From contig NC_092351.1 in NCBI RefSeq assembly GCF_963676685.1, positions 42,594,001 through 42,658,000 of the forward strand: 64,000 nt of DNA, written 5' to 3'. The DNA comes from Mytilus edulis (lineage: Eukaryota). How positions within the stretch are numbered: the first letter of the stretch is position 1; each line of letters begins with the position of its first letter. The notes below the pieces were generated by a model. The model was not told the origin of the DNA. It saw nothing but the letters and a program-made list of their open reading frames with translations, and searched no databases. Both the position numbers and the translations under genes were made by a program. Shown here one piece after another: positions 13,311 to 62,171 of the stretch.

Positions 13311-13574
13311 TGTAATTCCAAATCAATGTATAACCCTATTATTTGGATTTTTGATCGAAATTACGAAGTTCTTTACCTGGTTCCTATGAGAAGTTTATTC
13401 TTCTATGCTCTTCTACGCTCAATGTAATCATCTGGCACACATTTGAATATTAAGTTTTCCCTCATTGATCTGAATTGTTGCTCTGTTACTTTATCTTTTA
13501 ATTGTCTGTTTTTCTTTAAATAGAATGCACGTTGGTTCACCCATGTCCTGTTCTCTGTTTTACATTTCAATTAA

Positions 13575-15325: not shown

Positions 15326-15441
15326 TTTATGTGCAATATACATAAGACAACGTCACTTGCTAAACTTTTATGTGCAATATACATAAGACATCACTTGCTA
15401 AACTTTTATGTGCAATATACATAAGACAACATCACTTGCTT
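15326..15441. repeat. ~40-bp tandem repeat x3
   Basis: ttttatgtgcaatatacataagacaac.tcacttgct occurs three times; two copies at about 49245-49322 and one at about 56972-57010. Confidence 0.85.
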
Positions 15442-15599
15442 AAATACATATTATTGTTTGAAATGTTGAATACAAACGACAGCACTCATTCTGCGTTAAT
15501 TGAGGTGGCTGGATTTGACACGTTACGAACGTTGATGATGGTGGTTTAGTTTGCTGCAGTACGGTTGCAGATGGTAGTTGCATGTTTTGACAAAACGTC

Positions 15600-16130
15600 C
15601 AATGCTGGTGCAACTATCCTCATTTAGTTTTTCAGGATTTCGTTTCTGTTGTTCTGATGGTCGACTGAATGACCATAATGCATTGCTCCGATGACAAGTT
15701 TGCTCCCTTAGAAGCTGCTCCGGAATGTTAACATTAAATAGGCGTAGTTGCTTTTAGAGAATGATTAGTTTAAATTTCATCTATACCTGCCTGTTTTTTC
15801 CCGACTGGTTGTTTGGAAAACCAAAACGGTCTTATCTCTATAACACGCAAGGGTCTGAAAATAAAAGGCTTCATTTGTTCTTTCTAATGACAACTTCTTA
15901 ATGTAGGTGTTGAATATTTGTACCGGACACCTATCTGGTTGATGCCTATTTTCAAATGCTCTGGCGTGTGTGTTTCAACATTCCTATGGTCAAGTCCTCC
16001 ATGTATGTTTTGGACAATGTTTCCATATACACCAACATTTGTTTGCCGTTATCTTCTGTCTCCCATTTTAATTTTTCCAAGCAGAGGTCGCGATGTTATT
16101 GACCACCTCGGAGACCAAAGCTTATATCTA
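15600..16130 (-). mobile_element. Crypton-type (DUF3504/ZMYM-like) tyrosine recombinase fragment, block A copy
   Basis: Paralog of 57150-57725; includes PDRCPV, GHRSNAL and a partial LRGG motif. Split by a SINE at 16134. Confidence 0.7.
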
Positions 16131-16133
16131 TTG

Positions 16134-16560
16134 CCCCTCAAGGGTGACTGGGGTATAGAAATATGGTCACTTGGTCTTCTCCCGACCGACAGTAAAACGC
16201 TTGCCGAAGTGGGGCGTCCGTTTGGCTGTGCGGGATGTATCAAGTTCGCAGTCACGTCCGGTCAGAAGGGGGACGTTAAATCCGATGCCTCGTGTAAAGA
16301 GAGTGTCACGCTCTTTGCACGTTAAGAACCCTTGCAACAACTCTTTGAGGGGTCCGTAGGTGGCCTGTTGCAAGGCAAAATTTCCGTCCCTATCAAATAA
16401 ACCCTTCTTTTCCGGTGGCAGTCCAAATTTCCCCGACCATCATCCCAGATGGTCCCTGTTGTAACAACCTGCCTATTGTGTTTGTTGTGAGCTTGTTCTC
16501 GTCCTGAATATGCATGAAATATTTGCCACTGGACGTAAAGCAAACAACAATCAATCAATC
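16134..16560 (+). mobile_element. Full-length Deu/Nin-domain-like SINE with TSD
   Basis: TSD atatctattg/atatcttttg (16124-16133, 16561-16570); Deu-like core gggacgttaaatccgatgcctcgtg...tgcacgttaagaaccc; tail ggacgt.aagcaa...(caat)n. The empty site is visible in the paralog at about 57690. Confidence 0.85.
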
Positions 16561-17786
16561 ATATCTTTTGTCCAAAACATGGTATGAAATAAAGTTTCTT
16601 GATCACTATATAAAAAAAAAACGTTTTCCCATAACATAGTTTCTGTTTCTTTAGCAATTCTTAATACTGTTGAATTTGATATCTGGAAGTAGATAACTAG
16701 TTCATCCATTAATTTCAGAATACTTTTGAATATAAGTTATGTAGTAGGTGGTTTCCTGTGATAAGGAAAAACACTAACAAGAGCTAAGGTTCTGATGTTT
16801 ATTATAAATTACTAGCAATTTTAAATTACATAAGTATGGACACTTTTACGAAATATCACAGATTTTATATTACAGAAATATAATATAAATATAATAAATA
16901 ATCCATTTAACTGTAACTAAGTATCAAGTGAAATGTATTACAGATAAAAATGTTCAATGTTTAGTGATTGAAATTGACATCAGAGTCATGTGTACTTTTA
17001 CATTTGGCTTGACTTGAAATCCACAATATTTGGAATGTGATCCGTAATTGATGTGTATCTGTGCATGTATTTTTCAGTTATGGGTTGTTTGCTTGTGAGA
17101 AAGCTTTCACATGTTTATTTTATCTTGGTATTTAATTTTTATTGTTTATTCAATATTACGGCGTTTCGATGTATTAATACTCATCCACGCCTGCTACTTT
17201 TTATTATTGCCCCCCCTGCTATGGTTTTACCAAGATTTCTAACAACCTCTGTTTTTGCCCTGTGTTTGTTATATGTCAGTCTTGTTATATTTAAGTCTTT
17301 ACGTCGGGCCTTTTATAATATTTTTTGTAAGATTCAATGTTACAACCTCCGGTCTATATATTGTTCCCTATTTATAATCATGATTTTACGGAATGGAAAA
17401 TATTATTAACAGCAAAATTTCTAGGTTATCTACGTGCATAAATAAAACAATTTGTAATGCCACTACAGTCAGATTATTTAACAAAAAAACACGTGGATAT
17501 CCACAAATGTTCCCGTGCAATGCCAAAAATGACTATAAAAAAGATGTGATATGACTGTTCTCAAAATACTATAAGTTCAACAGTGAACGGGAGAACATTT
17601 TGTCTCTCCTTTTTCTGTGATATTACCTGAAAAACTCTAAACCTGATATATGTGGTTACTTGAACCCAATCTAAGTGTGGTATTCAATATGTGGGACCGA
17701 CGGGACGAGAGTATTACAGAAGAAATCAAGAACATCTCTGCCGCTTTCGTAGACCCAAAAAATTCAAAAGTTTAGTATATCAACAT

Positions 17787-42113: not shown

Positions 42114-43636
42114 TCAAAGCCAAACATTTGAAATCCGAAGATGTATAAGTACCGAAACCTATGAAGAGCTATATGTCAAATATGCCTAAAATGAATAGCC
42201 AAATTCATCTAAAGCCAACTTTTCCTGAGGGAGTTGAAACCTTAGTTTCTTAATAATTTCAAAATTTGAAAATGGACAAGTAATGTTCATAGTCTTCAGA
42301 GCTGTAAGGCATTTGTCTCAAAGGTTAAAAAAGCTAAAGAAATCAACGTTTACTGCAATTTTGCTGAAGAGTCTTGATATCAACGCCAGAGTTAAAAACT
42401 GAGGTTTCAGTTCATACGGGGAACACACAACTTTTGAGGGCTCACATGCAAGTTGTCATTCAAACCATATTTTCTAAATGCAAGGTTACTGTGGAATTTA
42501 ATGTGAAGTGAACTCATACAACAATTTTTTATTTATCAATCAAGACTCCACAAGGAGCAGTAAAATTACAGTTTGAATTATAGTATACAAATAATTGATA
42601 ATTGTGGTGATTTTTATCATATATGGGGGTGGGAGGATGGAGGGGGATAGACGTTTAAAATGTTGCATCAGAAAATATGGCAATTGATAATCAAGAAGAG
42701 AAGGAGGTGTATAAAAATCTTACTTTGTCCAAATAGCCCGACGTTAGTTAGATTTCTAATCTTAACTAAAACAAGAGAGGAATTCAACCGTTCACTTAGT
42801 AGGTGCAATCCTAAAATTGTAACTTTTCACAGAAACTTCCCCAGTTGGGCTCATGCTGATTTGCTAATGGTGAACAACATATTATTTTTATAAGTCTGTT
42901 CAGCTGGGAGCTGCTATGACACACGGTTCATCAGTTGCAAATTCAAAGCAAACGTTCCTTATCTTCAAAACTAAAAAGGGCAAGTATACAATGAATGCCA
43001 CATTCACTATTCTCTTTCAGTTTTATTATTAAAAGGGCTTAGTTTATCCAGGATATCAGGATTCTGACAATATAATTGTTTAAGATTACATTAAAATTCC
43101 AATCATTAGTAGTGATAGACAGTGTGTTTAAAAGAAGAACTATTTACTAACATCACTTTAACGTTTGGATCTAAAGCTACATGCAGGTAGGTCATTTTCA
43201 ATTCCAATACCATAATGCGTACAAATGCAAGCAACTTTAGATCTTTAAGTGTATGAAATGTATTAATGTTCTACTGCATATACATTTTATATACAAGATT
43301 CTTATAAGTTGACTGTTCGTCTTGTATCTTTCGGCCCTCTTTCATGTATTGCGCAAATGAAAATAGAACAAATCCTTAAATATGAACTTCAAGATTAAAT
43401 TTCTACCTGTACTGTTTGATAGCAAACCAGTTTCAGATAATTGTTACTTTTACAGGTCTGATACGTGGACTCAGTGTTATAATCTTATAAGCGCAATGCA
43501 GTACTGGTTGTGGTTAATGCTCATCTTAGCTATATTTACATCTGTTTGCGAGCGTAGTTATTTTATATTTAATGGGACCATTATCTCTCTTCATTTTTGT
43601 TTGCTTGCTATTACAAACATTATTGTTTTACCATTT

Positions 43637-43975
43637 TAAAGCAAACAATCTTGGTAGGGTTTGTGTTTTTCACACTTTATTGGACGGTCTTGATTCAGTG
43701 ATACAAGGCGGTGCTCATGGTTGGTGCATCTCCTTTTATGACACAAATGAGACACATCAACTTCCTCTGAAAAGTCATATTTCCAATTGTGCAACAGCTA
43801 AGGAAATTCGTGTTCTTACAATGTTCTTTTTTTTTCTGTGACAAGGAAACCTAGCACTACAAACTGGATACAGTTTTGTGTGTCCACCCATATGACTTAT
43901 CAAACACCCGTAAACCTCTATTTCAAAGCAAGTTTCTCTCAAATGTGCTTTATATGTCTCAATCCATTTTCTGTA
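43637..43975 (-). pseudogene. His-Me finger (His-Cys box, I-PpoI-like) nuclease remnant
   Basis: Minus translation YGCLISHMGGHTKLYPVCSARFP.../LHNWKYDFSEEVDVSHLCHKRRCTNHEHRLVSLNQDRPIKCEKHKPYQDCLL*, carrying the SHLCHxxxCxNxxH motif. Confidence 0.75.
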
Positions 43976-43984
43976 AATGCAAGT

Positions 43985-44250
43985 TTTGATGTCAACCTCT
44001 TTGGCGTTCAATACAATAGACTCCTTTCGCCAAATTCACCATTTTGGTTATTTTTTGCTCTTCTGCATTCATATACAGACATTGAAACTCGAGTTTTTGT
44101 TCAAGGAAACGATATTACTATTACAACTTTCTTTACATTCTTGGACTATATAAGTATCAATACAAATATTCAATTTCAAAATATGATTATCTATGTCATA
44201 ACCTCCTATTTGTAATGAGATTATTTCTGGAGAAAAATCAGGGACCAATA
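43985..44250 (-). pseudogene. SGNH hydrolase remnant (block B copy)
   Basis: LVPDFSPEIISLQIGGYDIDNH; paralog of 50250-51045. Confidence 0.65.
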
Positions 44251-44429
44251 TTAATATAAGTTACACAAAAATCGGTTGACCTCCTATTAGTTGTACAATA
44301 ATTTCGTTATCTGCGAATATCACTGTGCCCCAAAGTAAGATCTGCAATTCATTTTTTCATTAAATTTATATTCTTAATAATTAATAAATCTGAATTTTAC
44401 CCTGAAAAAAATCTTACGGAGAACCCATT

Positions 44430-44625
44430 CTTTGCCTCAGTATGGTCCATTCTCGCAATTCTTCGTCGCCTTTCTTCAGTTTTGGAGCAGATAATTCGAA
44501 TGTGACCAAACTTACTACATTTAGGCATATACTTTGTCTCTCCTGTACCGTTGCAAGAACCACTCTATTAACACGTCCACGATACGGATTACTCTGAATC
44601 TACGTTTAGGTGCATTTCATAGTCA
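44430..44625 (-). pseudogene. CCHC zinc-knuckle gag/ORF1 fragment (block B copy)
   Basis: IQSNPYRGRVNRVVLATVQERQSICL/KCSKFGHIRIIC aligns with AIQYRGMVYNRPVLITVLGRQPVCLKCGLKGHQRSAC at 58740-58860. Confidence 0.65.
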
Positions 44626-44869
44626 AAGTCCGTATTATAATTTCTTTCTGTTTCATTACATTTTTAGTATTTTTCATTTTTGGGGAAATCAGTTTTTTGA
44701 CGGGATTTATAAAATACTCCATCTTTATCTTTATTCCATTTTTCAAGTCACATATTCTTCATAAAAGTTTTACGAAATGTTTTTAGGCAAGTCTTTGGAC
44801 AATGCAACACAAATATTCATATGTTTTAAGACTTAAAGGGCACTAGCTACGCGATACCTTCAAAAAAAT

Positions 44870-45895
44870 ATTTTTCTCAAAATACCCAATTCTTTGGGCA
44901 GAGGTTCCAGACATAATTAATGTTCCTTACATTGTTTTTTTTCTTTCTTTTCCTTCTTTGTCCAGAACAGCCTCTGTTAAATAGTCTAGCGATTTGATTT
45001 GGGAGTCCACATCACCCGAGCTGTAAGATTTTGTTTAATATTCAGTATAGAGAATATCATCTAAAAATTCTGTGTGTTGTATAGTATAGAATATGCACTC
45101 ACAGTTACCAAAACATATGAAGTGGTTACACGGCGGTAATAAAATCCTAGTGAATTTTTATGGATATGGATATACAATTTGAGGGTATATGGTTTAGGAT
45201 ATTATCCACAATTTCACCGTTAGAAAACTGCCTCATAACTTCTTAAAATTATCTTCATTTTCATACATATTTCATTGTTACAGTTACTGCAAGGCAATTG
45301 GTTCTTGACCATGGAATGCTAAAAGACACACACGTATAGAATCGTCAAGCCAATACCATATTTTAAGATGTTTCTCACTATTGGGAGCACGAATTTTTAC
45401 AAATTGTTGATTAATATAAATGTTTCAATGAAAGATAATTGAAGTTATGCAGTGTAAGATCCTTCAGTATACAACCCCAAGCAATTCCTTCAAAAAGCCT
45501 TAGGTTAACTTACCATTTGTCAACATTGACCATGCCGATGTCAAGTTGACATGGTAATTTATCTTTCCGAGATCAATCCCTAGATCCTTCAATGTTCGAA
45601 ATCCATTGGTCAATGCGTCGGGCTTGAATAGGGACAAATAGTCGCCTCTTTGAGTCAGACTCATCTCGTCTAGGGCGGTATAGCTTGCTATAACTTCTTT
45701 TCCGTGGAAAGAAGGGAAGAATTGTCTAAAAGAAATTCATATACGTGTGCTTTAAGAAGAACCTGGTGATGAACTTTGATGGAGTTTGACTGTTGGTGAC
45801 TTCGGGCAAATCTTTTTTGGAGGTCTGCTTAGTGATTTTTCTCCATGTTTCGATCCATTGAGCCACACCATTGATTTTTTTCTGACCATGATAGT
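44870..45895 (-). pseudogene. Decayed coding sequence of unknown family (longest copy)
   Basis: ...AQWIETWRKITK...FITRFFLKHTYMNFF/RQFFPSFHGKEVIASYTALDEMSLTQRGDYLSLFKPDALTNG...AWSMLTNG followed by a donor-like gtaagt. Confidence 0.4.
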
Positions 45896-47159
45896 AATTG
45901 AAAAGGAAAAGAAATGATTTTCCAGCTTTAAAACAACATTTTTTTAGTCATTTTTTACTCTTTATAAAATCAAATGCACATGTCTTATAAGACTAACACA
46001 CTGATAAAATGAAGTACCTTTAGTTTGTAATGTGTTATCATAGTATAGTAGATGCGTTTGATTTTTATACTAATATAGAAATTGTGTTTAAATTAAAAAG
46101 TATCAGATAAAGACCGATTTATATGCAAATCTATTCTGTTTTTCTTTATTAAAAGCCTCTTCCCCTCGAGACGCGAAATCTGACGTCCCGAGCGACATTT
46201 TAAGTTTTCTTACCAATTAATTTGAAGTAATAAGCAGGTATTTGGTTAAATTCCATGATAGAAATTTAATTTTATATAAATATATACGGGGAGAAGTCGT
46301 CTAAAGAAGTTTTTTTATTGAGAAATTTGCGGATGAAGCCTAAAAATATGCAACACGGAATACTAGGGAGAGGTGTTTTGAGAAAAGAGAGCACTGAAAA
46401 CGACTGCTTCTGCTTGCAGGAAATAGATTACGTTTCAAATCCTCCCGTGCAATACATTATATGGTACTAATAATTATAAAAAAAAATTGATACTTCAACT
46501 TACTTTGATATTTTTTCTTCGCTTCGAGATTGCCATCCCGTGTCACAAATAGCCGACACCCCGAATGTGGCGTTCTACACTGTGTGTTTGTTATGTTGGT
46601 AACTCATTGGTATTCTTGTTACCTTATTTTATAGATTTACTTGAAATTGTGTACAGTTGTGTAGGTTTTTAATGTCATCAACAGAAGACAATTATAAATA
46701 ATATATTATTCGTTTGTAGACCGAGCACACAGAAAACATATACGCAGGTTGACATAAAGCACTTCATATTTGATCTTATGACAATTGACATGATTGATGA
46801 ATATATAAACAAATTTTCATAGTTAATAGTCTATTACATGTGTAAAGTTTAATTGTTCAATCGAAAAGTTCATGTAGATCATATTAACTGATTAAATATT
46901 CAAAATGATATGGAATTAATATCTCTAATATCCTTTCTTTTAGTTTAAAATAAATGTGTTTGTGTTTATGTTTTATTTTAATATCGGGAAAAAGTAACAA
47001 TACATCTGTCTGGGTATTTTATATTTTCATAAGCTTTCACTGTCTTTGGTGTATATTTTTTGTCATTGCCGCTTGCATTTGTTTTCGATATGCCTTCCTT
47101 GTAAAGAATATATCTTTTTATGTAAATCCGAATCAATGTATGGCTTTATTATATGTGGA

Positions 47160-47900
47160 TTTATGTTCAAAATTACGAAGTTCTTTACCTGGTTTCTATG
47201 AGAAGTTTATTTACTACCACGCTATGCAAAATATATGCCATTCAATACACCATTGTGCACATCCAACAGATTTGGGAGATTATCAGACCCTATGACTGCT
47301 CTCTCTCACAAGATTTTTTTTCTAGACTTGATATTGGTTCTGTTCCACGACTCGCGGCACCTTACCCTTCTACTGATCTTTTCTTCATAACAGAGTCTGT
47401 AATGTGTGGCACTTGGCATTAGTAGGTTGAGAAAGTAGGTTTACGGATGGATCACTCAATCTTGTGTGTCCTTGTGAAGCCACAAAGAATGACGCTGATG
47501 TAGATATTTCCATCTGTCTTTTTAACTTTACCTAAGAAATAATGCAATGCAATGTCCCTTGTGCATGGTTCCATTTCATTAATACTATGTGTAATTGCTT
47601 TGACTGGCATGAGTAAATTGTCGGGTTATTTCATCATATTCTGCTCTTAAAATCATGAAACACCTTCGCACAGAATTTACAGGAATAATCACTTGTAGAA
47701 GTAAATAGGCTGTTTGGTCTTCAACATCATTATTTACACATTTATTGTTTAAATGAGTACCCGGTATCTTTGTTCTCAGTGTCACTGATCTGTCCTTTTC
47801 TACATCTGTCTTATTCACCATTACCATGATTGATTGATTGCTATAGTAGGTGGGGGATGTTGACTCTTAGTCGGTCTTCCTTTAGTTCTGGCATCTTGCA
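47160..47900 (-). mobile_element. Second Crypton-type (DUF3504) recombinase remnant, N-terminal part
   Basis: LHYFLGKVKKTDG..Y...DSVMKKRSVEG...EPIS...VIGSDN.P...LNGIYFA.RGS; paralog at 56530-56920, mostly deleted in block A. Confidence 0.6.
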
Positions 47901-50249
47901 GTATGTGAACTCGTGTTCTTCTACGCTCAATGATGTCGATTTGATACTTTTCTTGCACAACAAAGTGATTTTTGTTTACAGTTTTGGAATTGCAGCTATA
48001 ACTACCATGTGCATGTCTTTACATCGCCCAAATTAAGTCACTTTGCTCCTTGGACCATTGTCCTTTTTTTGTGTATGTCTGTGTTTCAAATAAAAACAAA
48101 TCAACAGTTTTGAAGCTTATTCATTTTGTTTTACGATGAAAATTAGGTTTCGGTCGCCTAAATATTTTTTCCTATTTGAAATAATATAAAATTCCACTAT
48201 ACCTGTCAACTTTAATAATAACTGATTGCATGCATTTTATGGGAATGTGGACGTATGTTCTTGTTCTTGCTTTATTGAAAAGCGGAAACTGTATTTGCAG
48301 CAAGGACAGATGGTGGCTGTACGGTCGATTTTTTTTTGTACAAAACTAAATCAATCAATCAATCAACCAAATTTTGAGCGTACACTTAAAACAGAGTATT
48401 TATCTAACTACTGAATTAGAAACAGAAACAAAACATGTTTTTGTAAACGAAAATCAATCACATCTTTAAAGCCAAAGAAGAGAAAGAAAAACAAAAAAAA
48501 AAGGTTTAATTGCAGAGACTAAATTTTATACAATTATTGGTATTCCGTGTGAAAATATGTAAGTACAGCAGGGTTATCCTATTTAAATTGGCTCCTTTCA
48601 ATAAACGGCATAACAAATTGTGTCCCGACTTTTGATACAAGAACGCGTTCCATTGAAATCAGTTAGAAGTAGACAAATGTCCCTAAATGCGATAGCAAAT
48701 TGTTTTATTGTATGTTTTAAAATAATGTATTGGCTCAATATAATACGTTCGAATACCTCTTAATGTATCATATATTTGTATGATTCATTTTACACTGGTC
48801 TTTAAAAGACTTAATCTGAGAAAGAAAATAATATTAACGTAGCATCATTAAATGTTATACACCGGATCTATTGTTATACTTCAGTTTCTGAAACACGTAT
48901 AACTTCAATATATCTATTGTATCGTATATCAATAGATTTTGACCACAGGGTATGACAAGCGAGAAACCCCTGCTACCACACCCCGAAATCAGGGTTCATA
49001 TTTATTCCTGACAGTAGATATTTCGTTTTTTTTTGGCCAAAAACATGAACTGAAGTGATAATTTAAAGTGTTCACAACAACTTATCTCGTGTCAAATTAA
49101 AAAATAGTTCAGGAGATCGCATTGTAAAAAAGATATTAAGCATCTATTTGGAAGTAAAAAATATGTTCATTTGAATACCCCTTTGCTTGAATTTTACATT
49201 TCAACACCATATGGCAACTTCTCAAAGACCATACTTTTAAAACACTTTGATGCGCAATATACATAAGTCAATTTCACTTGCTAAACTTTTATGTGCAATA
49301 TAATAAGACAACATCACTTGCTTAAATACGAATTGTTGAATACAAACGACAGCACTCGTTCTGCGTTAATTGAGGTGGCTGGATTTGACACGTTAGGAAC
49401 GCTGATGATGGTGGTTTAGTTTGCCGCAGTAGGGTTGCAGATGGTAATTGCATGTTTTGAAAAAAACGTCCGGTGCTGATGCAACTATCCTCATTTAGTT
49501 TTTCAGGTTTTCGTTTCTGTTGTTATGAGGTCGATTGTATGACCATAATGCATTGCTCCGATGACCAGTTTGCTCCCTTAGAAGCTGCTCCGGATTTCCA
49601 CTCAACTCACTAGTTATAGCATATAAAAAGCGGGAGATTCCTCATTGAGACCACTTTAAAAAAAACTTCGTGCAGATATTGGAAAATTACCTCTTTGCCT
49701 TACGTCTACCCACTTGAGAATCTGAGCTGGTAATTATCCCCAGAATACTACATGAACTACATTTCCTGGAGAACTCAATCGAGATCTCTGATTGGTTGTT
49801 ACGTCAATAAAATTTAATGAATGAACAATTCGGAAATAAATGAAATGATTATTATTTATCTTTCCGGGAAAACAATTAAAAGTACTAATAATGAAATAAA
49901 TAAAAGAACCAAATTAAGTGACACACACACATTACATCACCCCACTTTCCCATAGAAGAGATTTGTCTGCATATCTTGCAGTTTCCATGTGCAAGTTAGC
50001 GCGCGCTGCTATATGAAACTTGTTTTGTGGTGTCGTGTGCAAGAATCTGAACTTTCAACTAATATTTAAACATTTCCCCTCCGGATCATGAAATATACAG
50101 ATAATTTTACAAGCTGAAAAATATTACTCCACATTTATACAAAAATATATCTCAGCCACCACAAACAGCTCCACACTAAAATGTATGTATCTATAAAATG
50201 TGACAGAAAATGGATTTTTAATCTTTATTATCTTATAAAAGGACCTTAT

Positions 50250-51045
50250 TTTTCTTTTATTTAAATGGACACCATCTTCAATCAACACAAATTTTGATGT
50301 CAACCTCTTTAGTGTTCAATCCAATAGAAAATCTTTAAACTCCTTTCGCCTAATCTACCATTTCCTGATTAATATCTGCTCTTCTGCATTCATATACAGA
50401 CATTGAAACTCGAGTTTTCAATCTAGGATCCCCCAAGGGTGACTGGGGTATAGAAATATGGTCACCTGGTCTTCTCCCGCAGTAAAACGCTTGCCGAAGT
50501 AGGGCGTCCGTTTGGCTGTGCGGGATGTATCAAGTTCGCAGTCACGTCCGGTCAGAATGGGGACGTTAAATCCGATGCCTCGTGTAAAGAGAGTGCCACG
50601 CTCTTTGCACGTTAAGAACCCTTGCTACAACTCTTTGAGTGGTCAGTAGGTGGCCTGTTGCAAGGCAAAATTTCTGTCCCTATCCAATATACCCTCATTT
50701 TCCAGTGGCAGTTCGAATTTCCCTGACCATCATCCCAGATGGCCTCTATTGTGACAAGACCTACCTATTGTATTTATTGTGAAAATGTTCTCGTCCTGAA
50801 TATGCATGAAATATTTGCCACTGGACGTTAAGCAACCAACCATCAATCAATCAATCAATCTAGGAAACAACTATTACAACCTTATTTACATTTTTGGACT
50901 TCAAGTATCTTAAGAAGTTTTTAAAAGTATCGATAAAAATATCATATTTAAAAATATGACTATCTATGTCATAACCTCCTATTTGTAATGATATTATGTC
51001 TGGAGAAAAATCAGTGACCAATCTTTGAAAGACCACCTTTACCAT
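50250..51045 (-). pseudogene. SGNH/GDSL hydrolase remnant of the type carried by Ngaro and some CR1/L2 elements, split by a SINE
   Basis: Block III-like PDIISLQIGGYDID and block V EDGVHLN (50259-50279). Confidence 0.75.
50429..50855 (+). mobile_element. Full-length Deu/Nin-domain-like SINE with TSD
   Basis: TSD caatctagga (50419-50428, 50856-50865); same family as 16134-16560; empty site at about 44095-44110. Confidence 0.88.
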
Positions 51046-51171
51046 TCATGATACTGCAACGTAAATGGGTTTTCGTGTGTAAACGTATTTTCCATTCATA
51101 ATATGTCTCATGACATCATACCCCGCTCAGCCGTAAATAAAACGTTACTGGTAGAGAGGGTTATGCCTGTG

Positions 51172-54100
51172 CTTTCGCTCCAGGACTTCTGACAGCATAC
51201 TGACAATACAACGACACAGTAAATTCAATAAATGACAGGTATAAGAAACCTTAATTAAAATGACCAGTGATAACGATTGGCCAAGCAATGTATTTGCTCA
51301 TATAAAAAATGACCAAAATTCATAAAATAGTTTCATATTTAATAGACAAAGACAATTTAAATACATAAATTTCGCGGTATCTCCATGTGAAAATATCAAT
51401 TCAGAATTTCAATACATTTTTGAACTTCCCCTTTTTGGACAAACGATGAGGTGAAAAATACCCATTACAAGTTAACCAATTCAAAGAAGCGTTTGGCCTA
51501 GTGCTATCTAATTGAATAATTAATATGATACTAGAATTTTGAGGTGTCCCATTACTTCAAATATTGAGAGCTGTACACTAGTCATCTCAAACTAAATTAT
51601 TATCCGATCAATCAAGTTGTAACATCAACCTTCCGAGACAAAATAAATATACTCACTGGTTCCCACCGACTTTGTTAGACTAGATCATGAACCTCATTAT
51701 TCTATGACTAGGGAACAAAAATCGATCCAGTAAAAAAAACATCGCATTTATATATACTCGTTTAATTTTCAGTACAACCAGAGCAATGTCTGAAAACGTT
51801 TTTCAATATCATTGACCAGTTCAACACCCAAAACCAAAACATGCGATAATACAAAATTCTATTTCAGACTAAGGCACGAACAATTCCGTAGATTGATGAC
51901 AGTTACTCCAAAATATCCCTCGGATGAACCATATGTCTAAATATCGCTATCAAAATGAACTCCATCTCTTTATAAACCAGAACTCATAAATTATCAAGCT
52001 AGTGTACAATTTCCTCTATTTATTCTGGAACGGAAACGTAAATTAATATTTTAAAACTGTTTGACTACAAGACCGAAAAGAAATATATCAAATGTGAAGA
52101 AATAAATATTTAAGTCCAACATCAAAATACAAAATAAAATGAAATTTAAAGTACAACTTATCAGTACGAAAGTTTTCCCCAATCTAAAGAAATACTGCCC
52201 TGACAAGGTCTGGCCATTGAGTTTCAAGCACGAAAAAAACGATCCCCGCGAAAAAGTAACCGGACAGCTATAGTTATATATAGTATCTAAAAATAGAAAA
52301 GGGGGAATTTACGATGACCCATAAACGTTACAATACCCCCTACCCCGAAAAACAAATCGTCCGCGATTTGAAAACATAGTAAGACAATTTAAAGGACAAG
52401 ACACGGTTGTCTTTAAACAATTGAAAATGTACATTGTATATAATTTTTAATTTTAAAGTCTAAATGTTGATAAATGTCCAAGAAGGTCCAAACAGTGATG
52501 AAGGTCCAAATGGTGACGAAGGTCCAAATAGTGATGAAGGTCCAAACATTTCCATTGATGAAGGCAATTTCTTCATAAACGTTAAACAGATATTTCCATG
52601 CGAATTAAGAATTGGATCCATATATGTCTTTAATATTCTTTTATTCCAACAATGCACAAACACTGAAAAATAATAACTGACAAAAAATAGAATCAAATCA
52701 AATCAAAAAATTCTTTATATTTTTGGAGACACCGACAACCACATGTATTAACATTTTACGTGCAGAGCACGGAGATTGGGGAAGGTAGACATTCCAAATT
52801 AAAGTAATTTCATATACTAGTACATGTAATCTTAAATGAACTAAGGCCAAGCAATTGTATTCGAGAAGATCAGTAGCGATTACATGAGTGTGCTACAAGA
52901 ACAAAATAATTATGTAATTCAACATTATCTCCAATATTTTCTATAAATCAATATATCGAATGCAATGACGTTAAATAAGTGTGTATGATGTGTGTACTAA
53001 ACCCAACTTCAGAAGTACAGTAAGCAAACTATTAAAGCATAAGAAAGATAACAATCACGTACAAATGCTATTCTTTTATTTCAGAGTGCACCCATTTGTC
53101 ACCCATGACTATATTTATATCTATATGTATGCTGCCATACTGTGAGTCTCAGTTCACGTATCAATATTATTCATAGTTCTTCTATATCTAGCTTAAACTA
53201 CTGTACTACCAAAGCTTATGGTAGCGATGTATGGCCAGAGCATAGCTAATACTTTCTATGTGTCTATTATATTCAGGCAGTTTCAACAGCATACTAGTGT
53301 TCAACTGGTCATATGCTTGGGTGAATCATAAAATCATGTATTTACTGTCATGTATATAATTTACATTAATAAGATTAAAAATAATGTATTCGTGGACTTT
53401 TTTTTTGTGCACCCCTAAAATTGGGTTCAGCACACTTTTTCTATATATCATCATCACATGCAATCTACACTGCATTAATTTTTTACCATATACAAATAAA
53501 CATATTCCATCACAAGACACCGTAAATCTATTATGGAAGGCCAACTTTCATCACTAAACTCTCAATAATTTTTACATAAAAAAAAAATATATCCGCGGGT
53601 TACTAACTTTCCAAATCACTTAAGTAAAGTTTAAATTCCTCCCAATAAATACATTTGACTAAGATTAAAGTACATGCTCAGGCAAACTTGACCATTCACG
53701 CAAGACGCAAATCTGCAGTCAATTCATAGAAAAAATGAACATCTGAATTAATAGAATAACCCCGAAAAATGTATTCTAAACCCCTTAATAGTAAATAATA
53801 TATACATGTAATAGATATATTCAAGTATGAAGGTACCGACTGTGTAGAAACAATCCCATATTCACAACAAGTCTATGCAAGGACTTGTAAAAAAAAGAAT
53901 AACTCATACGTAAATTAACAACATAAAACAACCTATGAATGAATATGACTTTTTATAAAAACAATCCACAAATAATCAAATTTGCCAAAATTACAAAAAC
54001 AAAGTTGTCGTACCCCCTATCTTAACGAAGTATCAGTTCATGACACACAATGACTGTAAATAGTCCAAATTCCGTTATTCCGCACATATATAAAATAGTT

Positions 54101-56577
54101 CTTCAGCATAACGCATGCTTGTTGCAGTCAAGAATATAATTCACATGAGTTGGTTCTGACCTTGGTCAGGTGTCAGAACCAACCTTTCAACATACAGATT
54201 GTCCATAGAAATAAATCCATCAATATAAACATTCGACTATAGTTATACTTCGCAGATAAGGAGGCACAACAAATACATACACTGTCGGCAAGGTAAAAAA
54301 AACCATTATGAAATACACTTGTTTTTTATTTTCTTGTAATGAACATAAAATGAATAACAACATTAAGTTACACAGCCGGTAAAAAATTTGACAAGCTATA
54401 CAATTTATATTACAAGCTCAGCCCTCCACTGTCGCTACCGATTTTCTCGAGAGAAAAAAATAAAAGTAATGAGGTGATGAAGTTCGAAAATGATCTAAGT
54501 AATATAAGTTATACGAAAATCGGTTGAAATTCCATTAATAATTACATAATCTGCGAATATCACTGTGCCCCAAGGTAAGAACTGTACTTCATTTTCAGTC
54601 TTTCAATTTATTTTCTTAATATAATTTTAATGAATATTTTCTTTGGGTTTCTGAAATATAACCCTGAAAAATCTAACGGAGGGTCCAATCCCTGCCTCAG
54701 TATGGACCACTCTCACCATCTCTACGTAGATTCGTCGCCTTTCTTCAGTTTGCGGTGGTCTGATTATTACCAAACATGCTACATCTTAGGCATAGACTGT
54801 CTCTGCTGCTCCGTTACAAGAACCACTCTACTAACACGTCCATGATACATCTACTCTGAATCTGCGTTTAAGTGCATTTCATAGTCAAAGTTAAAGTCCC
54901 TGTTTTCAGTTCCTTTTCTGTTTTATAAAATTTTTAGAATTTTTATTTTTTTTGGGAAATTAGTTTTTTGACAGATTTTATAAAATACTCTATTTCTATT
55001 CTCAATTTTATCTATCTTTATCTTTATTCCTTTCCATCAAGGGCGACTTGAGAAACAACTATGGTCACTTGGTCTTCTCCCGACCGGCAGTAAAACGCTT
55101 GCCGAAGTTGAGCAGTCACGCCCGGTCAGAATGGGGACGTTAAATCAGATGCCTCGTGTAAAGAGAGTGCCACACTCTTTCCACGTTAAGAACCCTCTTT
55201 GAGGGGTCCATAGGTGGCCTGTTGAAAGGCAAAATTTCTGTCCCTATCTAATATAGCCTTATTTTTCTGTGGCAGTCCAGATTTCCTAGACCATCTTCCA
55301 AAATGGCCTCTATTATGACAAGACTAGTTCAAATCCATATCATCGATTTCTTTATTTTCCAAATCTATCAATTCCCTTTTCAATTAGAAAACAAAAATCG
55401 TAATATGCATCAAACTTTGTTCTTGGTTAACCAACAGTTTCTTTTAACAAAAAAGTATTTCAAGTTACACCAACTTGTAATAAATATCCATGCACTGTTG
55501 AAGCACGTACGGAATATTTTAATAATGCAAGCAATATTGTAGGATATATTTCATTTTTTTCTCCCCAATAAATAGACATAATATGCATAACTTGAGTGAA
55601 ACTGCAACACTAAAAAACATGCTTATCGAACCAAGCTTTCCAAGTTAGCTTCTAAACATCCAAAAATGTTAGATAAATGTTCCACTTTACCTTACTTTCT
55701 CAAAATATCCGATTCTTTGGGTAGAGGTTCCAAACATATTGTTCCATACATTGGTTTTATATTTTTTCTTTGTCCAGAACAGCCTCTGTTAAATAGTCTA
55801 GCGACTTGATTTGATAGTCCACATCACCTGAGGTGTACGATTTTGTTAAATATTCAGTAGAGAGAATATCATCCTCCAAATATATTTCAAAATCTGTGTT
55901 TTTGTATTGTATAGAAAGTGCACTCACAGTTACCAAAACATATGAAGTGGTTACACCACGATAACAAAATCCTAGTGAATATTTGTTGTTAGTGATGTTA
56001 AATTTGAGGGTATGTGCTTGATGATATTCTCCACCTATTTCACCGTTGAAAACTGCATCATAACTTGTAAAGTATCCTCATTTCCATACATAATTCATCA
56101 TTTGTCCTTCAGTTACTGCAAGGGAATTAGTTCTGGACCCTAGAATGCATGCCAAGACACACGTTTAGAGTCGGCAAGTCAATACCATAGTATGACATGT
56201 TTCTCACTACTGGGAACACCAATTACTACCAACTGGCTGTTTCAACTAAATTTATTTTAAAATATTTCAATGAAAGAATATTGAAGTTATGCAATGTAAA
56301 ATCTTCAGTATACAACCCCGACCAATTCTTACAAAAAGCCTAAAGTTACCTCAGCATTGAACATGCCAATGTCAATTTGACATGGTCATTTTCTTTCCGA
56401 GATCAAACCCTAGATCTTTCCATGTTGAAATCCATTGGGCAATGCGTCTGACTTGAACAAGGACAAATAGTCGCCTGTTTCATGTTATGTCAAATCAATG
56501 TATTACCCTATTATTTGTGGATTTTTTAAAATCAAAATTACGAAGTTCTTTACCTGGTTTCCATGATGAGTTTATTT
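51172..56577. repeat. Segmental duplication block (copy C), direct repeat of 8095-13399
   Basis: Colinear, high similarity, including the minisatellite (52482-52544), hairpin (54149-54183), gag fragment (54700-54885) and deleted SINE (55035-55325). Confidence 0.95.
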
Positions 56578-57149
56578 ACTACCACGTTATGCAAAATGTA
56601 TGCCATTCAAATACACCATTACAACCTACAGTTTTAGGGGTTTATCAGACCCTATGACTGCTCTCTCTCACAAGATAACTTTCTCTAGACATGATATTGG
56701 TTCGGTTCCTCGACTCGCGGCACCTTATCCTTCTGCTGATCTTTTCTTCATCACAGAGTCTGTAATGTGTGGCACTTGGCATTAGTAGGTTGAGTAAGTA
56801 GATTTACGGATGGATCACTCAATCGCATGTGTCCTTGCGAAGCCACAAACAATTCCGATGATAAGTGGATATTTTCATCAGTCTCTATTCCTACCTATAT
56901 CTGTGTTATTCACCATTACCATGATTCATTCTACATTTTAACACTATATGGCAACTTCTCATAGACCATACTTTTTATGTGCAGTATACATTAGACAACG
57001 TCACTTGCTAAAATAAATATAATTGTTTGAATTGTTGAATACAAACGATTGCACTTATTCTGCGTAAATTGTGGTGGCTGGATTGGAAACATTATGAACG
57101 TTTATGATGTTGGTTTATGGTTGAATTTGGTGGTTACTTGTTTTGAAAT

Positions 57150-57725
57150 ACCGTCTGATGCTGGTGCAGCTATTTTCAATTAGTTGCAGGATTTCAGACA
57201 CTTTTCGTTTCTGTTGTTCTGATGGTTGACTGTATGACCATAATGCATTGCTCCGATGATCAGTTTGCTTCCTTCGAAGCTGCTCCGGAATGTTAACATT
57301 AAGCCTTTGGAGAATGATTAGTGTAAAATTCATGTATCTGCCTGCCTTTTTACAACAACTTCAATTTTGTTTTTCCCGACTGGTTGCCTCGAAAACCAAA
57401 CGGTCTTATCTCTATAGCACGCAAGGTCTGGAAATGAAAATATTTATTTGTTCTTTCTAATTGCAACTTTTGGTGTAGGTCTTGAATATGTGAACTGGAC
57501 ACCTATCTGGTTGATGCCTATTTTCAAATTTCTATGCCGTGTGTGGTTCAATAGTCCTGTAGTCAAGTCCTCCCTGTATGTTTTTGACACTGTCTCCCTA
57601 TAAAACAAAACTTGTTTACCGTTATCTTGTTTCCAACCATCAAGTTTTTCAAGCAGAGGTCGCAATGACCTTGACCACCTCGGAGATCAAAGTTTAAACC
57701 TATTGTCAAAAACATGGTATAAAAT
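57150..57725 (-). mobile_element. Crypton-type (DUF3504) tyrosine recombinase C-terminal remnant
   Basis: LNFDLRGGQGH.DL...NGKQVLFYRETVSKTY...PDRCPV...NIPEQLRRKQTDHRSNALWSYSQPSEQQKRKVSEIL. Confidence 0.82.
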
Positions 57726-57959
57726 AGAAAAATTGACACAAATACAAGTGTGTATTTCAAATGGATTTGAAGTTAAATGGAACTTCTTAAGTATGTTCAT
57801 ACTAACACATTTCTTCATTTTTAATGTATAACTCTTGCAGATGTTGATATAGTGTCAGCCTAGCTTGAGTCCGGTTCTTCAGAAAGTTCCATTTTTTTTT
57901 CAGGGGTTAATCCTTCTACTGTGTAAATTTCATGCGTTTTTTAAACGGTCATGAATCAC

Positions 57960-58430
57960 CCCCTGCCTGCATTTTACAGAGAGATGTACTTAACCAAGAC
58001 TCAGTAAATGCCAATATATCGAATTTGTCATATTCAGCTGCAATAGGATCTTGGGAGCTAAACTCTAGATGTTTAAATGTAGGAAAGAAGATTTCGAGGA
58101 CAAATCGTACAACATTTGACAAGTCGTTCGAGTTGATAGAACTATCTGGCGGTGCTTCGTTATAGATGGACATGGGTTTGTTTCAATGCCACCAAGAATC
58201 AGTAATATTTGTAACACAAGTAGTATAAATTTTGTATTATTAGATTTGGGTAGTTTCCCTTGTGGTTCTTCAAAAACCAGATGAATGAATAAAACGAGTG
58301 TTAACACTTGGGGTTTGTTCTTACTGGTAGCTTTTAGCATGATACAAAAAAAATGTCGAGTAAAGAGATAGATACTTTTATTGGAATTGCCGATTCTGAT
58401 GCTATACTGCCTATTGCTCACTCCAATTGT
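57960..58430 (-). mobile_element. 5' part of a CR1/L2-group LINE ORF2: 2A-like motif plus AP-endonuclease start
   Basis: GVSNRQYSIRIG...LLILGGIETNPCP...HLNI.SLAPKI...DKFDILAFTESWL. Confidence 0.8.
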
Positions 58431-58729
58431 ACTGTTACTCCTGTATCAGGGATTGTATCGCACTGAGAAAGGCTAAGTCGTAACAATATACCTATCTGCA
58501 TTTCGTTTTTTTTTAAAAAGAAATGCAGATATATAACAAAAATTGAGCGGAAAAAAAATGGTAAGAACTGAAAAATACAATTAAGAACTTCCATGATATA
58601 TATGGGGAAATGGGTGATATTGGAGGAGATTTAATTATTATGCAGTGGTAATCAATTAGTTTATACAATTGAATAGTAAATCAAAACTAGTCACTATTTC
58701 ACCTTGACACAGTTGATAATTGTTACTTG

Positions 58730-59250
58730 TGTTCTGAGAGCAGGCCGATCTCTGGTGTCCTTTCAGACCACACTTGAGGCAGACGGGTTGTCTGCCCAAA
58801 ACTGTTATCAGTACTGGCCGGTTGTAAACCATCCCTCTATATTGAATCGCCATAAACTGTGACTCGGTACCTCTCATGACACCTTTAAAGGTCCCGGTCT
58901 TCAGTTTAACCATTGTAATCCATGGTCTCCTACAATTGAATACTAGTACCATACCGATCCATCCAATATGTAACCAGTTATTTTTGAAGGTGGAGAGGAA
59001 ACCCCTGTACCTTAAAGTTCACGATTGTCCAATCTATTCTGTCGTTGGAAATGGTTCGGCTCTTTCCATCTCCGAAGTCGTCTGTTTGCGAAGGTGAGAT
59101 ACCATACAGCTCCTTCTCCCGTCTTGTATATAGCTTAATGTCTAGTCTCCAAAAGACCCTCGAAAATGAGATGACCTGTCCCCCTGTATTTACCTTGGCC
59201 TGCTGGAACTTGGCTCTCAGGGTCCTTCTAATCACAAACAGGTGAATGTA
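58730..59250 (-). pseudogene. Tx1/L1 ORF1 (ZCCHC3-like) gag remnant, unit 1
   Basis: RRTLRAKF...IVNFKVQGFPLHL...RPVLITVLGRQPVCLKCGLKGHQRSAC (CX2CX4HX4C). Confidence 0.75.
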
Positions 59251-59555
59251 CTTCAAAATATATCAATAGAAATAAAATAGACAGGTGAGTTAACTTTTGA
59301 CATAGATATAAAAGACAAAGGAATGTAACTTTATAAAGACCAAAGCGTAGTTATATAATACTATTAAATATAAACATATGAAAATACATATATATATAAA
59401 TAATATATCAATATCAAAAATAAAAATGCTATAAACATATGAAAAATACACCTATAAAAGGTTATAAAAGAGTAATCAAATTGAAAGTCCGTGGACAGAA
59501 GGGCAGTTATTTCAGGAGAATAATCAATGTACATACGTCCATAATTCAAGCAAAA

Positions 59556-60240
59556 TTAGTCAACCTCAATCGTTCTAGCACACTTTAAAGGTAGGGCAAC
59601 TGGTCCTGTCCTCGCCAGTTCTTCCTCTTTAACCAACTTCTTCCCATTGTCTTCTTTCTCTTTCTCCGCTGGGTCATTATCCCTCCCCCTCTTTCTGGTC
59701 TTCCCTGACAAGTCCATCCCTTTAGTACCTCGATCCTGGGGCGGATCTTTATTGCTGTCAATACATCGGTCCTCCCATTGACCTTCACTGCTGGAAGGTA
59801 CATCGGCACTCAACTGAGCGCTTTCACCGCTTCCATAATCTAACCCTGCCCTCGCCGAATCTGCATAACTCTTCCTAGTGTTAATAGTGTACTGATGGCA
59901 GGCCGACCTCTGTATGGTTTTGCCATGAACTGTTGCTCTGTACTTTTCATAACTCCTTTTAGGGCCCCGGTCTTCAACTTCAGTCCTTCATACTCCATAA
60001 GTTCCTTCTGTAGTTATATAGCAGTCCCGTACCGCTCTAACCATTTGGATACTAGTTCTTTCCTTAGATGAAGAGGAAACCAATGGACTTTGAATTTGAC
60101 TATTCTATAGTCGATCCTGTCGAAGTAAACGGCACCACTGCCGTTGATAATGGCTCGGCGTTGTCTGTCTCCAAACGTCTCCGTCTCGAGAATACCTTCT
60201 ATGGCTGCGATCACCTGTCCCCGTGTGTTGACTTTCGCCT
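59556..60240 (-). pseudogene. Tx1/L1 ORF1-like gag remnant, unit 2, with charged tail
   Basis: IAAIEGIL...FDRIDYRIVKFKVHWFPLHLRKELVSKWL; knuckle partly deleted (QRSAC kept); tail MSADV...DNGKKLVK. Confidence 0.7.
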
Positions 60241-60379
60241 GATATATATAAAAAATATTTCAATATCAAAAGTAGAAATAATAAATATAAAAGGAGTAAT
60301 CAAAATCAAAGTCCGTAGACAGAATGGCAATTATTTCAGGGGGATATTCAATATACATACATCCATAGTCAAAGCAAAG

Positions 60380-61430
60380 TTAGTCAATCTCTATCGCGCC
60401 AACAAACTTTATCGGTAGGGTAAGTGGTCCTGTTCTCTCCGGTTCCTCTGCTTTCACCAGCTTCTTTCCATTATCTTCTACCTCTTCTTCTGGGTCGTCA
60501 TCCCTCCCCTCTTTCTGGTCGTCCCTGCTACATTCATGTGTTTGCGATACATCGGCACTCAACCGATAGTTATTGGTCGATTTCGCATGTCTGTCTTGTT
60601 GATTTTCAAGGTGTTTTGGCGATGTGTTGTATACGGACCTATCTTCTTCACCTCTGTGACTGTTTTTATCGAATTTTGGTATTACAACGATCCCTTGATA
60701 TATCTATGACCTTCACTGCTATTAGGTACATCATCACTCAGTTGAGTGCCTTCACCGCTACTGGTGGTCAGTACATCAGGCCGCACAAGAGACCCTTCAC
60801 TTCTTAGAAGTTAATCGGGTAGACCTGTTTACCCTTCACTGCTGTCTGTCTGCGGTACATCATCACTCAACTGGGTGCTTTCACGGTTCCTGCCATACTG
60901 ACTTCCTTGGCGTACATCACCCTGGTCGTATTCTTCGGGCACACAGAACGTTGGTGCCCCTTCCCGCCACATTTAAGACGGACTGGCTGCCTGCCTAAAA
61001 TAGTGACGAGGACAGGTCGGTTGGATACCATTGCCCTGTATGGTATTCATATGGCGTTGAACTGGGCCTCGTTGCTTAATTCTCATGGCACCCGACACAG
61101 TCTTTCATTCTCATCTGATCGTATACCATGAAATCCTAATTTAGGTGAAATTCGTGTCGTAACTTCTAAGCCAATCCCTCACAAGCTCTTTCTTCATATG
61201 GAGGGGAAACTAGTGTATCCGAAAGCGAACCAGATAGTCCTTTCGAAACACACTGATCCCTTTTCCTTGCAGACTCTCCAGGTTCCGTCACATAGGACTT
61301 CTACTTCATTGTCGGTAATGAAGGTCACGTACCATTCGTTACCCTCCCGTCTTCTAACTTCCACGTCTATGGCGGCGATCACCTGGCCTCTGGTGTTAAT
61401 CTTAGGTCAGTAGATTTGGCTCTCGAGTTC
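60380..61430 (-). pseudogene. Tx1/L1 ORF1-like gag remnant, unit 3, with charged tail
   Basis: IAAIDVEVRRREGNEWYVTF...RPVLVTILGRQPVRLKCGGKGHQRSVC; tail MSADV...DNGKKLVK. Confidence 0.7.
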
Positions 61431-62171
61431 TTCTCATAACGTCACTATTATAATACGAATTCATGTTGACAGACGGGCGGCCGTGAAAAGTATAAAGTAG
61501 ACATATAATAATAAATGTAATATATAAAACAACCAATAGAAATAATGTAACAAATACAAAACAGAATACACCTATAGTAGATGGAAAGGGAGCACACAAT
61601 TGCATAGTCCAAGGGCGTAAAGGCAGTCATTTCAGGAGGGATTTTCAATTTTCGAAGAACGTTTAACAAATCAAAATAAAGTAACCCACATCTACAAGGT
61701 TATCTTGACTTTTCTTAATGTCATCAAGCAAATTGAGCACGACATTCCTTGAATCTTTCTCCTGTGTAACTAAGTGAGGCGGTTAAGTTTAACCTCATTT
61801 TCCCTGGTTGGCTTTGGAGGCACTCATTTCACATTTAAAAAATATACAGTTGTCCATATACATTTCAAAGATGTTCATTTCGTTTATATTCATATTAATA
61901 TACTTATTCATCTTTCTTTGCACATCGTCAGTCGTTGAATATGTCCTTGTTCTGTAATAAACCCTTGCTAATGATAATTTATTTTCAAGACTGCACGGCT
62001 TGCCGTTTGTTTATTTTTTTAACAAATGTTTAACGTGATATTTACGTATTTTCAGTTGAACTCAACTTTTGAGTTTTCCAAAATAAACTCTCAAAAGATG
62101 GAATCTAATTTCGAATTTTTTATGGTGTTTTTCGGGGTAAAACTTCAAAACGTTGCATTTGAAGTTATATA

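Follow-up and report, generated by a model that had tools for sequence, protein, structure and literature searches.

In the parts of the literature consulted, the targets of long interspersed nuclear elements (LINEs) of the Tx1 clade are U2, U5 and 5S genes, satellites, microsatellites and transposons, and U1 is given as a target only for Dada DNA transposons. Keno is the LINE of this clade that is specific to U2 small nuclear RNA (snRNA) genes (Kojima and Fujiwara 2004, per the excerpt of PMC4494074 used here). A Tx1 LINE targeting U1 was not described in the literature searched, Repbase and most subscription journals lying outside that search. A second kind of system are the uni-strand clusters of PIWI-interacting RNAs (piRNAs), for instance the flamenco and flam-like clusters of Drosophila (PMC10643416) and those of Arion vulgaris (PMC11615739), which in the excerpts of these papers are dense, nested assemblies of fragments from several transposon classes, mostly on one strand. 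Here we compare both with a stretch of 64,000 bp from Mytilus edulis (the window), positions 42,594,001-42,658,000 of contig C8 in the 1.37-Gb assembly to which contigs C5, C7, C12 and C493 also belong. An earlier note, made from the letters of the window, had proposed a candidate uni-strand piRNA cluster in it. Coordinates below 1 or above 64,000 are those of the window extended by 100 kb on each side.

The interval 43.2-61.8 kb is filled with broken transposons, mostly in one orientation, and lies by a U1 snRNA array; the pile has been triplicated locally. Identified parts cover 16,414 of the 18,611 bp of the interval (88%), with 12,435 bp of identified element DNA on the minus strand and 801 bp on the plus strand. 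We see about an even chance that it is a graveyard of dead transposons at the array margin, on the downstream side of the U1 genes. Its one-strand layout likely stems for the most part from a Keno-related Tx1 LINE, a probable inserter into U1 genes, multiplied by local duplication. Self-comparison of the window revealed three copies of one unit, A at about 6.9-16.7 kb, B at 43.4-49.6 kb and C at 50.3-57.7 kb. Units B and C stand in tandem and make up most of 43.4-57.7 kb; A and C have 5.4 kb in common at 92%, while B is 72-87% alike to both. The segmental duplication proposed in the earlier note was thus borne out by the tandem units and the third copy. Much of the region is single-copy.

A common strand and a unit present three times might also suggest a single large mobile element that spans the block and carries its genes in sense. 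Yet every piece has a dispersed parent family of its own, the junctions between pieces and a locus-specific open reading frame (ORF) were found only at this locus in own-genome searches, and the reading frames of the remnants are broken. Such an element, which the earlier note had named as the finding that would overturn its view, is largely ruled out by the separate parents, and we regard it as very improbable. The parents were looked for in the mussel's own genome because Pfam matches were weak: the 148 of 190 stop-free fragments searched for 43-62.5 kb gave a His-Me nuclease with E 0.005, a GDSL match with E 0.044 and otherwise noise. Named protein matches were limited to M. edulis gene models on one 308-kb contig, 75-95% alike to pieces of the locus. 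One public M. edulis gene model, named USP5/13, joins transposon fragments of the locus into a chimera.

The U1 array lies on the minus strand at 106.2-134.4 kb, 42 kb beyond the window end, with 1,353-bp units and 22 U1 promoters recognised by Rfam and a 17-mer of the proximal sequence element (PSE). Between window and array, at 88-106 kb, is a stack of Tx1 ORF1 and ORF2 pieces. Over the 264 kb, 33 ORF1 matches were listed, of which 31 are on the minus strand; the two plus-strand ones belong to an inverted block at -26.2 to -22.1 kb, whose plus-strand Tx1 ORF1 and ORF2 are 66-77% like pieces at 89.8-92.3 kb. At three of five aligned Tx1 5' ends (96.7, 100.0 and 101.5 kb) nucleotides ~9-31 of U1 directly precede the element, the U1 pieces having BLAST E values of 0.5, 3e-5 and 5e-4, respectively. 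The fourth 5' end is preceded by a piece of U1 spacer and the fifth, at 61.5 kb in the window, by neither. All three U1/Tx1 junctions lie 32-38 kb beyond the right end of the window. Genome-wide the Tx1 5' end is matched four times, always at this locus, and one of these matches is at 61.3-61.5 kb. Furthermore, at the array end (104.0-106.3 kb) the final U1 promoter, intact as far as -2, runs directly into a Tx1 ORF1 cut at its 5' side, a fusion that would yield sense ORF1 RNA. Two further ORF1 pieces, open over 292 and 272 codons, lie beyond the fused one; these pieces look the youngest of the family.

From the three junctions we infer specificity for U1: the family is likely a U1-targeting sister of Keno that inserted in sense at about U1 +31 and is now gone from the assembled arrays. 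Such insertion likely accounts for the shared strand of the Tx1 pieces. The closest intact relatives are Keno elements, sitting in U2 genes at +37, and the likeness to these U2-inserted elements of the same genome amounts to 63% of amino acids over 240 residues of ORF2. Like Keno, the family has a Tx1-clade ORF1 with a CCHC knuckle and an ORF2 with an apurinic/apyrimidinic endonuclease, a short stretch from the 5' part of the target snRNA stands ahead of its 5' ends, it is in sense with the target, and its copies are stacked at the array edge. It differs in the target piece, U1 (~nt 9-31) here and U2 (1-37) in Keno, and in consisting of broken pieces at a single locus, where the specificity is read from three 5' junctions. 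The pieces include neither an ORF2 3' end nor a 3' part of U1, and a 3' junction was therefore not seen. Pieces of U2 are absent from the C8 region, with U1 pieces in their place. Elsewhere the best candidates scored reached 36-39% in ORF1 and 63% in ORF2, and none was an intact copy of either ORF of the family. In the Tx1 spacer between the ORFs (59330-59345, and at 103.5 kb) a 14-letter word equals the 3' half of the U1 PSE; it is a possible point of recombination between element and array. On contig C493 (36959-39412) an intact Tx1 ORF1/ORF2 pair sits inside a U5 snRNA array contig and may belong to a U5-targeting family.

In the sequence of events that we favor, repeated insertion at about U1 +31 would have stacked LINE pieces in sense at the array edge, and an inversion would have turned one U1-promoter/Tx1 junction the other way. 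Crypton, Kolobok, LTR-type (long terminal repeat) and CR1 elements would then have nested in, and the unit would have been duplicated twice. The strand shared by six further elements would be due to chance or to a weak regional bias, and the locus would now be silent or nearly so. This account is favored by the plus orientation of the short interspersed nuclear elements (SINEs) and by the non-Tx1 elements at 17-42 and 62-87 kb, which are younger and mixed in orientation, as the earlier note had stated for 17-42 kb. Judging by control flanks, it is ordinary in this genome for an snRNA array to have one-strand Tx1 debris next to it: all 14 Keno pieces in the 356 kb that follow the U2 array downstream on contig C7 are on the minus strand. 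In the same 356 kb there was no inverted U2 promoter, and in ~166 kb around the U4 array no orphan U4 promoter, the U4 flanks holding few recognisable pieces (two plus, two minus). Among the three arrays examined, only the present locus has a one-strand pile of several families together with a backward promoter. In the C7 region (67.40-67.80 Mb) the U2 array carries at least three Keno ORF1 types; its Keno debris is on one strand, and a large tandem duplication extends over 350 kb. Further intact Keno copies are found in many unplaced contigs.

Several observations weigh against the graveyard account. U1 promoters, located by the exact PSE 17-mer, are spaced 914-1360 bp apart over 62 intervals in three arrays, and none of the 62 is interrupted by an insertion, while U2 arrays carry intact Keno; nor is there a full U1 pseudogene among the debris, though a decayed array might leave some. 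Target specificity is no explanation for the independent non-Tx1 families with dispersed parents in the interval, all six of which are on the minus strand (one-sided p = 0.016), or seven of seven with the L2-type end of unit A (p = 0.008). Identified element DNA makes up as much as 88% of the interval. Both orphan copies of the U1 PSE in the genome, out of 66 copies in all, face antisense into the pile and score within the range of true genes. Finally, the non-Tx1 elements of the C7 flank lean to minus as well, nine against two plus with duplicates unmerged.

The strand bias itself is real. A home-made protein library was compared with both strands by tblastn. Only two plus-strand matches exceeded the decoy ceiling of 27.7 bits, and both reflect the His-Me gene read in antisense. 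The library used for orientation counts (205 proteins) is small, so that background counts are low and plus-strand remnants of unsampled families may be missed. The earlier note had put every coding remnant on the minus strand. This holds for all Tx1 ORF1 pieces of the interval and for the six non-Tx1 families, but the SINEs, a U1 upstream copy and a probable ORF2 start are on the plus strand. With three independent plus-strand SINEs counted as well, 7 of 10 are minus and p rises to 0.17. All these p values apply to an interval (43.2-61.8 kb) that was chosen post hoc, and a run of seven one-strand pieces occurred in 8-12% of simulated random strings of 15-20 pieces. Independent families numbered six to seven in place of the roughly ten fragments of the note. 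For Tx1, which contributes most to the bias, target-specific insertion into the U1 array nearby is the simpler and likely cause.

The backward promoter deserves a closer look. The segment 48084-48764 corresponds to U1 -826 to -49 at 67%, and 14501-15013 in unit A to U1 -616 to -42 at 71%; both are on the plus strand and reach 80-82% over the proximal 200 bp. The PSE core is present and U1 is gone: no snRNA coding region or 3' box follows, and between 42 and 64 kb Rfam gave no match at E up to 1. What follows is a Tx1-like linker and then the end of a Crypton. The predicted starts, ~48813 and ~15055, are 40 nt ahead of the Crypton terminus (~48852 and ~15098, respectively), and the Crypton gene points back at the promoter. 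Of the 66 genomic occurrences of the U1 PSE 17-mer, 64 fall in the three U1 arrays and two are these orphans, identical to that of U1 or one letter off, with 3' letters that differ from those of U1. The PSE is ~60 nt upstream of the predicted starts as in snRNA-type promoters of RNA polymerase II. An AYACC anchor at -58 to -60 is common to U1, U2, U4, two U5 types and one U12; U11 and three copies of U12 deviate from it. With a PSE matrix built without U1, the orphans scored 0.1 and 2.1, U1 2.9 and true snRNA genes -0.2 to 9.2.

The 87-bp linker of the 48-kb copy (48766-48852, plus strand) probably comprises the last part of a Tx1 inter-ORF spacer and the first ~17 codons of a plus-strand ORF2, a reading of moderate support. 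Among the loci compared, its best non-self DNA matches are Keno ORF2 starts (E 5e-6), and the top four matches of its peptide in the 205 proteins are Keno ORF2 N-termini. The peptide score was reached by 2 of 300 shuffles against that N-terminus and by 33 of 300 against the whole library. For the 15-kb copy the peptide match was not significant. Thus the orphan copy would most simply be an inverted U1-promoter/Tx1 junction, and its end at a probable ORF2 start explains the breakpoint without selection. That inversions recur is indicated by the second inverted Tx1 block 22-26 kb left of the window. Letters 15030-15045 of the 15-kb copy agree with the U4 promoter at 14 of 16 positions at the same distance from the PSE (about -25 to -10), which was matched by none of 5000 shuffles; this stretch is not common to other snRNA promoters and overlaps the Tx1-like linker.

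The locus could nevertheless be a small-RNA defence locus by way of this backward-facing promoter. According to this rival, which we regard as the less probable one but a serious possibility, the interval is an active or fossil uni-strand piRNA source with a plus-strand precursor over ~48.8-61.5 kb that would read Crypton, SGNH-element, LTR, CR1 and U1-LINE pieces in antisense, and with antisense insertions kept by selection. The plus-strand direction that a precursor needs is in keeping with the data, as the earlier note held, and a plus-facing candidate promoter, exclusive to the unit, is present too; its PSE core stands at -60, where U1, U2, U4, U5 and U12 share a conserved anchor. The seven antisense non-Tx1 families of seven, the 12.4 kb against 0.8 kb and the lack of an intact copy of the U1 family in the assembly are in line with it. 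A narrower form, in which a captured, inverted and U1-less U1 promoter fires a piRNA precursor antisense through the remains of the U1 LINE, we consider unlikely. If true, the LINE that parasitised the U1 array would have been silenced and cleared from it, and Crypton, LTR and CR1 pieces would later have been trapped in antisense.

Other features of the interval bear on a piRNA source, most of them against it. Units A and B keep most of their fragments upstream of the promoter copy, and unit C has no promoter. Past the 15-kb orphan copy the elements are mostly plus, and the SINEs are in sense. The orphan promoter is not conserved beyond its Crypton neighbour, with 63 of 72 positions (-120 to -49) shared between its two copies compared with 532 of 575. 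Unannotated gaps are not elevated in T-richness, their level being reached by 20 of 72 background windows. Counts of polyA signals and splice donors compared by strand gave no consistent pattern. The 85 polarised changes after duplication showed no significant asymmetry, with A>G at 12 and T>C at 4 on the plus strand (p = 0.21). An excess of A>G over T>C on the plus strand is the direction expected of transcription-coupled repair by mammalian precedent, and to this extent the counts lean towards a precursor.

Comparison with described clusters shows likenesses and differences. In the cited parts of the literature, mollusc clusters measure 2.7-17 kb (PMC11067994), a size shared by the present locus. 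In slugs, clusters are uni-strand and packed with antisense fragments (PMC11615739), and in flies strand bias predicted real clusters (PMC10643416). Oyster class 4 clusters are a further case of the uni-strand kind, and the Crypton and Tx1 content seen here is that of oyster somatic clusters, in which Academ, Crypton and Tx1 are most abundant (PMC6128900). On the other hand, the interval spans 13-19 kb and not hundreds of kb; it has no Gypsy-driven bias, its SINEs are in sense, and its candidate promoter is of snRNA type and in mid-interval. Mammalian piC-DoG read-through clusters (PMC11615739) offer a parallel, since here too a borrowed host promoter would read antisense fragments; those promoters belong to intact mRNA or lncRNA genes, in contrast to an orphan, gene-less snRNA promoter. 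Human snRNA promoters, in the cited part of PMC3337830, lack a switch to long-range elongation, an obstacle for the captured-promoter form. In the literature searched, no piRNA cluster was found that uses an orphan snRNA promoter or is linked to an array of snRNA genes. The piRNA precursors of C. elegans are short units for single piRNAs, whereas a long antisense precursor would be needed here. The likeness to the SNAPc-driven piRNA genes of that worm (PMC7884074 and a 2026 preprint, in the parts cited) is that the snRNA transcription machinery would make piRNA precursors.

Expression was assessed by mapping seven raw-read runs of long RNA from six studies (6-90% of each was read; tissue unspecified, reads possibly from a sister species) and one contig set to 42.5-62.4 kb; the runs listed numbered 24, with none named as a small-RNA library. 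No RNA run was listed as containing 52-61.8 kb, which speaks for neither side. In single-copy bins, including the one just past 48813 and those at 57-61.7 kb, depth was at most ~0.3 on both strands in the seven runs, and high depth was confined to dispersed repeats. None of the seven runs contained reads starting at the predicted orphan promoter start. The contigs of run X1 had a depth of 3-5 over some single-copy parts; they are unstranded and may be DNA. Reads over the LTR element and the SINE derive from other copies, mostly 90-99% alike and separated by fixed-site differences. With unspecified tissues and short-lived piRNA precursors, near-zero reads are weak evidence against a precursor, and the piRNA reading is unproven. 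The observation of the earlier note was confirmed in part, and its interpretation is partly supported.

A regional bias of insertion or retention downstream of snRNA arrays, caused by minus-strand read-through or a fixed direction of replication and involving no antisense RNA, would explain why both flanks lean alike relative to their arrays, C8 as well as C7 with its non-Tx1 elements, and the last U1 promoter does point into sense ORF1 pieces. Yet the elements of mixed orientation at 17-42 and 62-87 kb are nearer or equally near to the array, the U4 flank is split evenly, and single-copy parts have no minus-strand reads. We consider such a bias, as the main cause, quite improbable.

The pieces are as follows. 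At the left edge a remnant of a His-Me finger nuclease (43201-43968, nuclease part 43.64-43.90 kb, minus strand; paralogue at ~6.8-7.4 kb) comes from a KolobokP-like DNA transposon, named after the relevant part of PMC9587614. It has 47 genome matches, the non-local ones at 41-67% of amino acids; the partner transposase faces the opposite way in such elements, of which only the nuclease part is retained here. In unit B it is followed on the minus strand by an SGNH hydrolase ORF remnant (43964-44398; 12 genome matches, non-local 64-73%), a Tx1 ORF1 piece (44400-44728), the locus-specific broken ORF (44873-45736, its strand read from reading frames alone) and a Crypton recombinase remnant of family 2 with dispersed relatives (46996-47625). 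Between the last two is one arm (45743-46590, no orientation) of a dispersed element with inverted ends of ~840 bp, whose copies are inverted pairs ~2 kb apart. Searches with a 93-aa frame at 47.6-47.9 kb gave no relative. Head-on to the orphan promoter stands the 3' part of Crypton family 1 with its terminus (48852-49594, minus strand).

An SGNH-encoding dispersed element follows on the minus strand with its 3' part and terminal repeat (49602-51033, resuming at 54485-54672) and is broken by a SINE; in other copies the element has direct repeats 4-14 kb apart. Next comes a non-autonomous LTR retroelement of 3.4 kb (51055-54493, minus strand) with internal region, polypurine tract and a 1.29-kb 3' LTR. 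Its 5' LTR and primer site are gone, and its strand was read from the polypurine tract and the primer site of fuller copies, which resembles a tRNA-Lys type. Elsewhere (C8, C12, C5) this element forms tandem arrays with shared 1.29-kb LTRs, and its transcription comes from those copies. Unit C continues on the minus strand with a Tx1 ORF1 piece (54673-54999), the locus-specific ORF (55696-56480, 106 open codons), a Crypton family 2 remnant found by self-comparison and tblastn (56493-56884) and a Crypton family 1 recombinase remnant with dispersed relatives (56930-57727). To the right are the endonuclease start of a CR1/L2-type LINE (57987-58726, minus strand; 28 genome matches at 44-58%) and three stacked minus-strand Tx1 ORF1 pieces of the U1-associated family (58659-61487), the last of which retains its 5' untranslated region.

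Unit A (6804-16740) holds, on the minus strand, the His-Me remnant, a Tx1 reverse transcriptase piece at 7.8-8.05 kb, the LTR element, the SGNH/ORF1 piece, the locus-specific ORF, an L2/CR1-type 3' end at ~13.5-14.4 kb (motif by eye and a 68% match to a dispersed repeat) and the Crypton, besides the plus-strand U1 promoter copy.

Most identities given in the earlier note stood up against own-genome relatives: the His-Me nuclease, the SGNH hydrolase, two Crypton families and the CR1/L2 endonuclease are minus-strand remnants with dispersed relatives, and so are the three Tx1 ORF1s at 58.7-61.5 kb. Its CCHC gag at 44.5 and 54.8 kb turned out to be another Tx1 ORF1 piece, shown by tblastn and own-genome relatives. 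In unit A the reverse transcriptase and the L2-type end are both minus as claimed, but the former is of Tx1 and not of generic L1 kind. Short fragments lacking termini are not the rule, as three elements keep one: the LTR element its 3' LTR, the Crypton its end at ~48852 and the SGNH element its terminal repeat at 49602. The LTR element, the unoriented arm, two plus-strand SINEs and the orphan promoter had been missed. The transposon nature of the ORF listed as unknown is not established. Own-genome matches are local only, ESM Atlas scores stayed below 0.9, and one Logan protein was found among representatives. The protein database gave a single M. edulis model, from this very locus; its USP5/13 label is unsupported by the pieces joined in it.

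The SINEs at 50431-50856 (full-length and young, 91-94% to its neighbours) and 55034-55321 (an older partial copy with a duplicate at 11.9-12.2 kb) were placed on the plus strand by their tail and by stranded reads, run X9 giving opposite mates for the LTR element and the SINE. The young SINE is highly expressed with a sharp RNA 5' end at 50431, where 645 molecules end in run X9 and 560 in X11; it has no Rfam match and its head is not tRNA-like by eye. Ten reads join its 3' end to its 5' end, suggesting circular or tandem RNA. A ribozyme like that of hepatitis delta virus, suspected at the 5' end from the motif, was rejected, as Rfam gave none and folding was ordinary (z -0.48). Near-full-length SINE copies from -48 to +94 kb are always on the strand opposite to the coding remnants, that is minus around the inverted left Tx1 block and plus over 11.9-94 kb. 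To the right of the U1 array, at 142.8-143.9 kb, a minus-strand frame resembles by eye an exon of a Yip1-type membrane protein, with no Pfam match at E 0.01, and is the nearest host-gene-like piece noticed there.

Should plus-strand piRNAs turn out to start at the orphan U1 promoter, one would have here a rare case in which the birth of a piRNA cluster is dated, with a named promoter, a named target and the Keno-infested U2 array as a natural control. A captured promoter, if real, would make a long piRNA precursor from an snRNA-type promoter and so join the SNAPc piRNA genes of nematodes with classical clusters. Should the reading that we favor hold, the yield is modest: mussels would probably have a sister of Keno that targets U1, and one-strand transposon piles by snRNA arrays would call for caution, as they can come from target-specific insertion and duplication.

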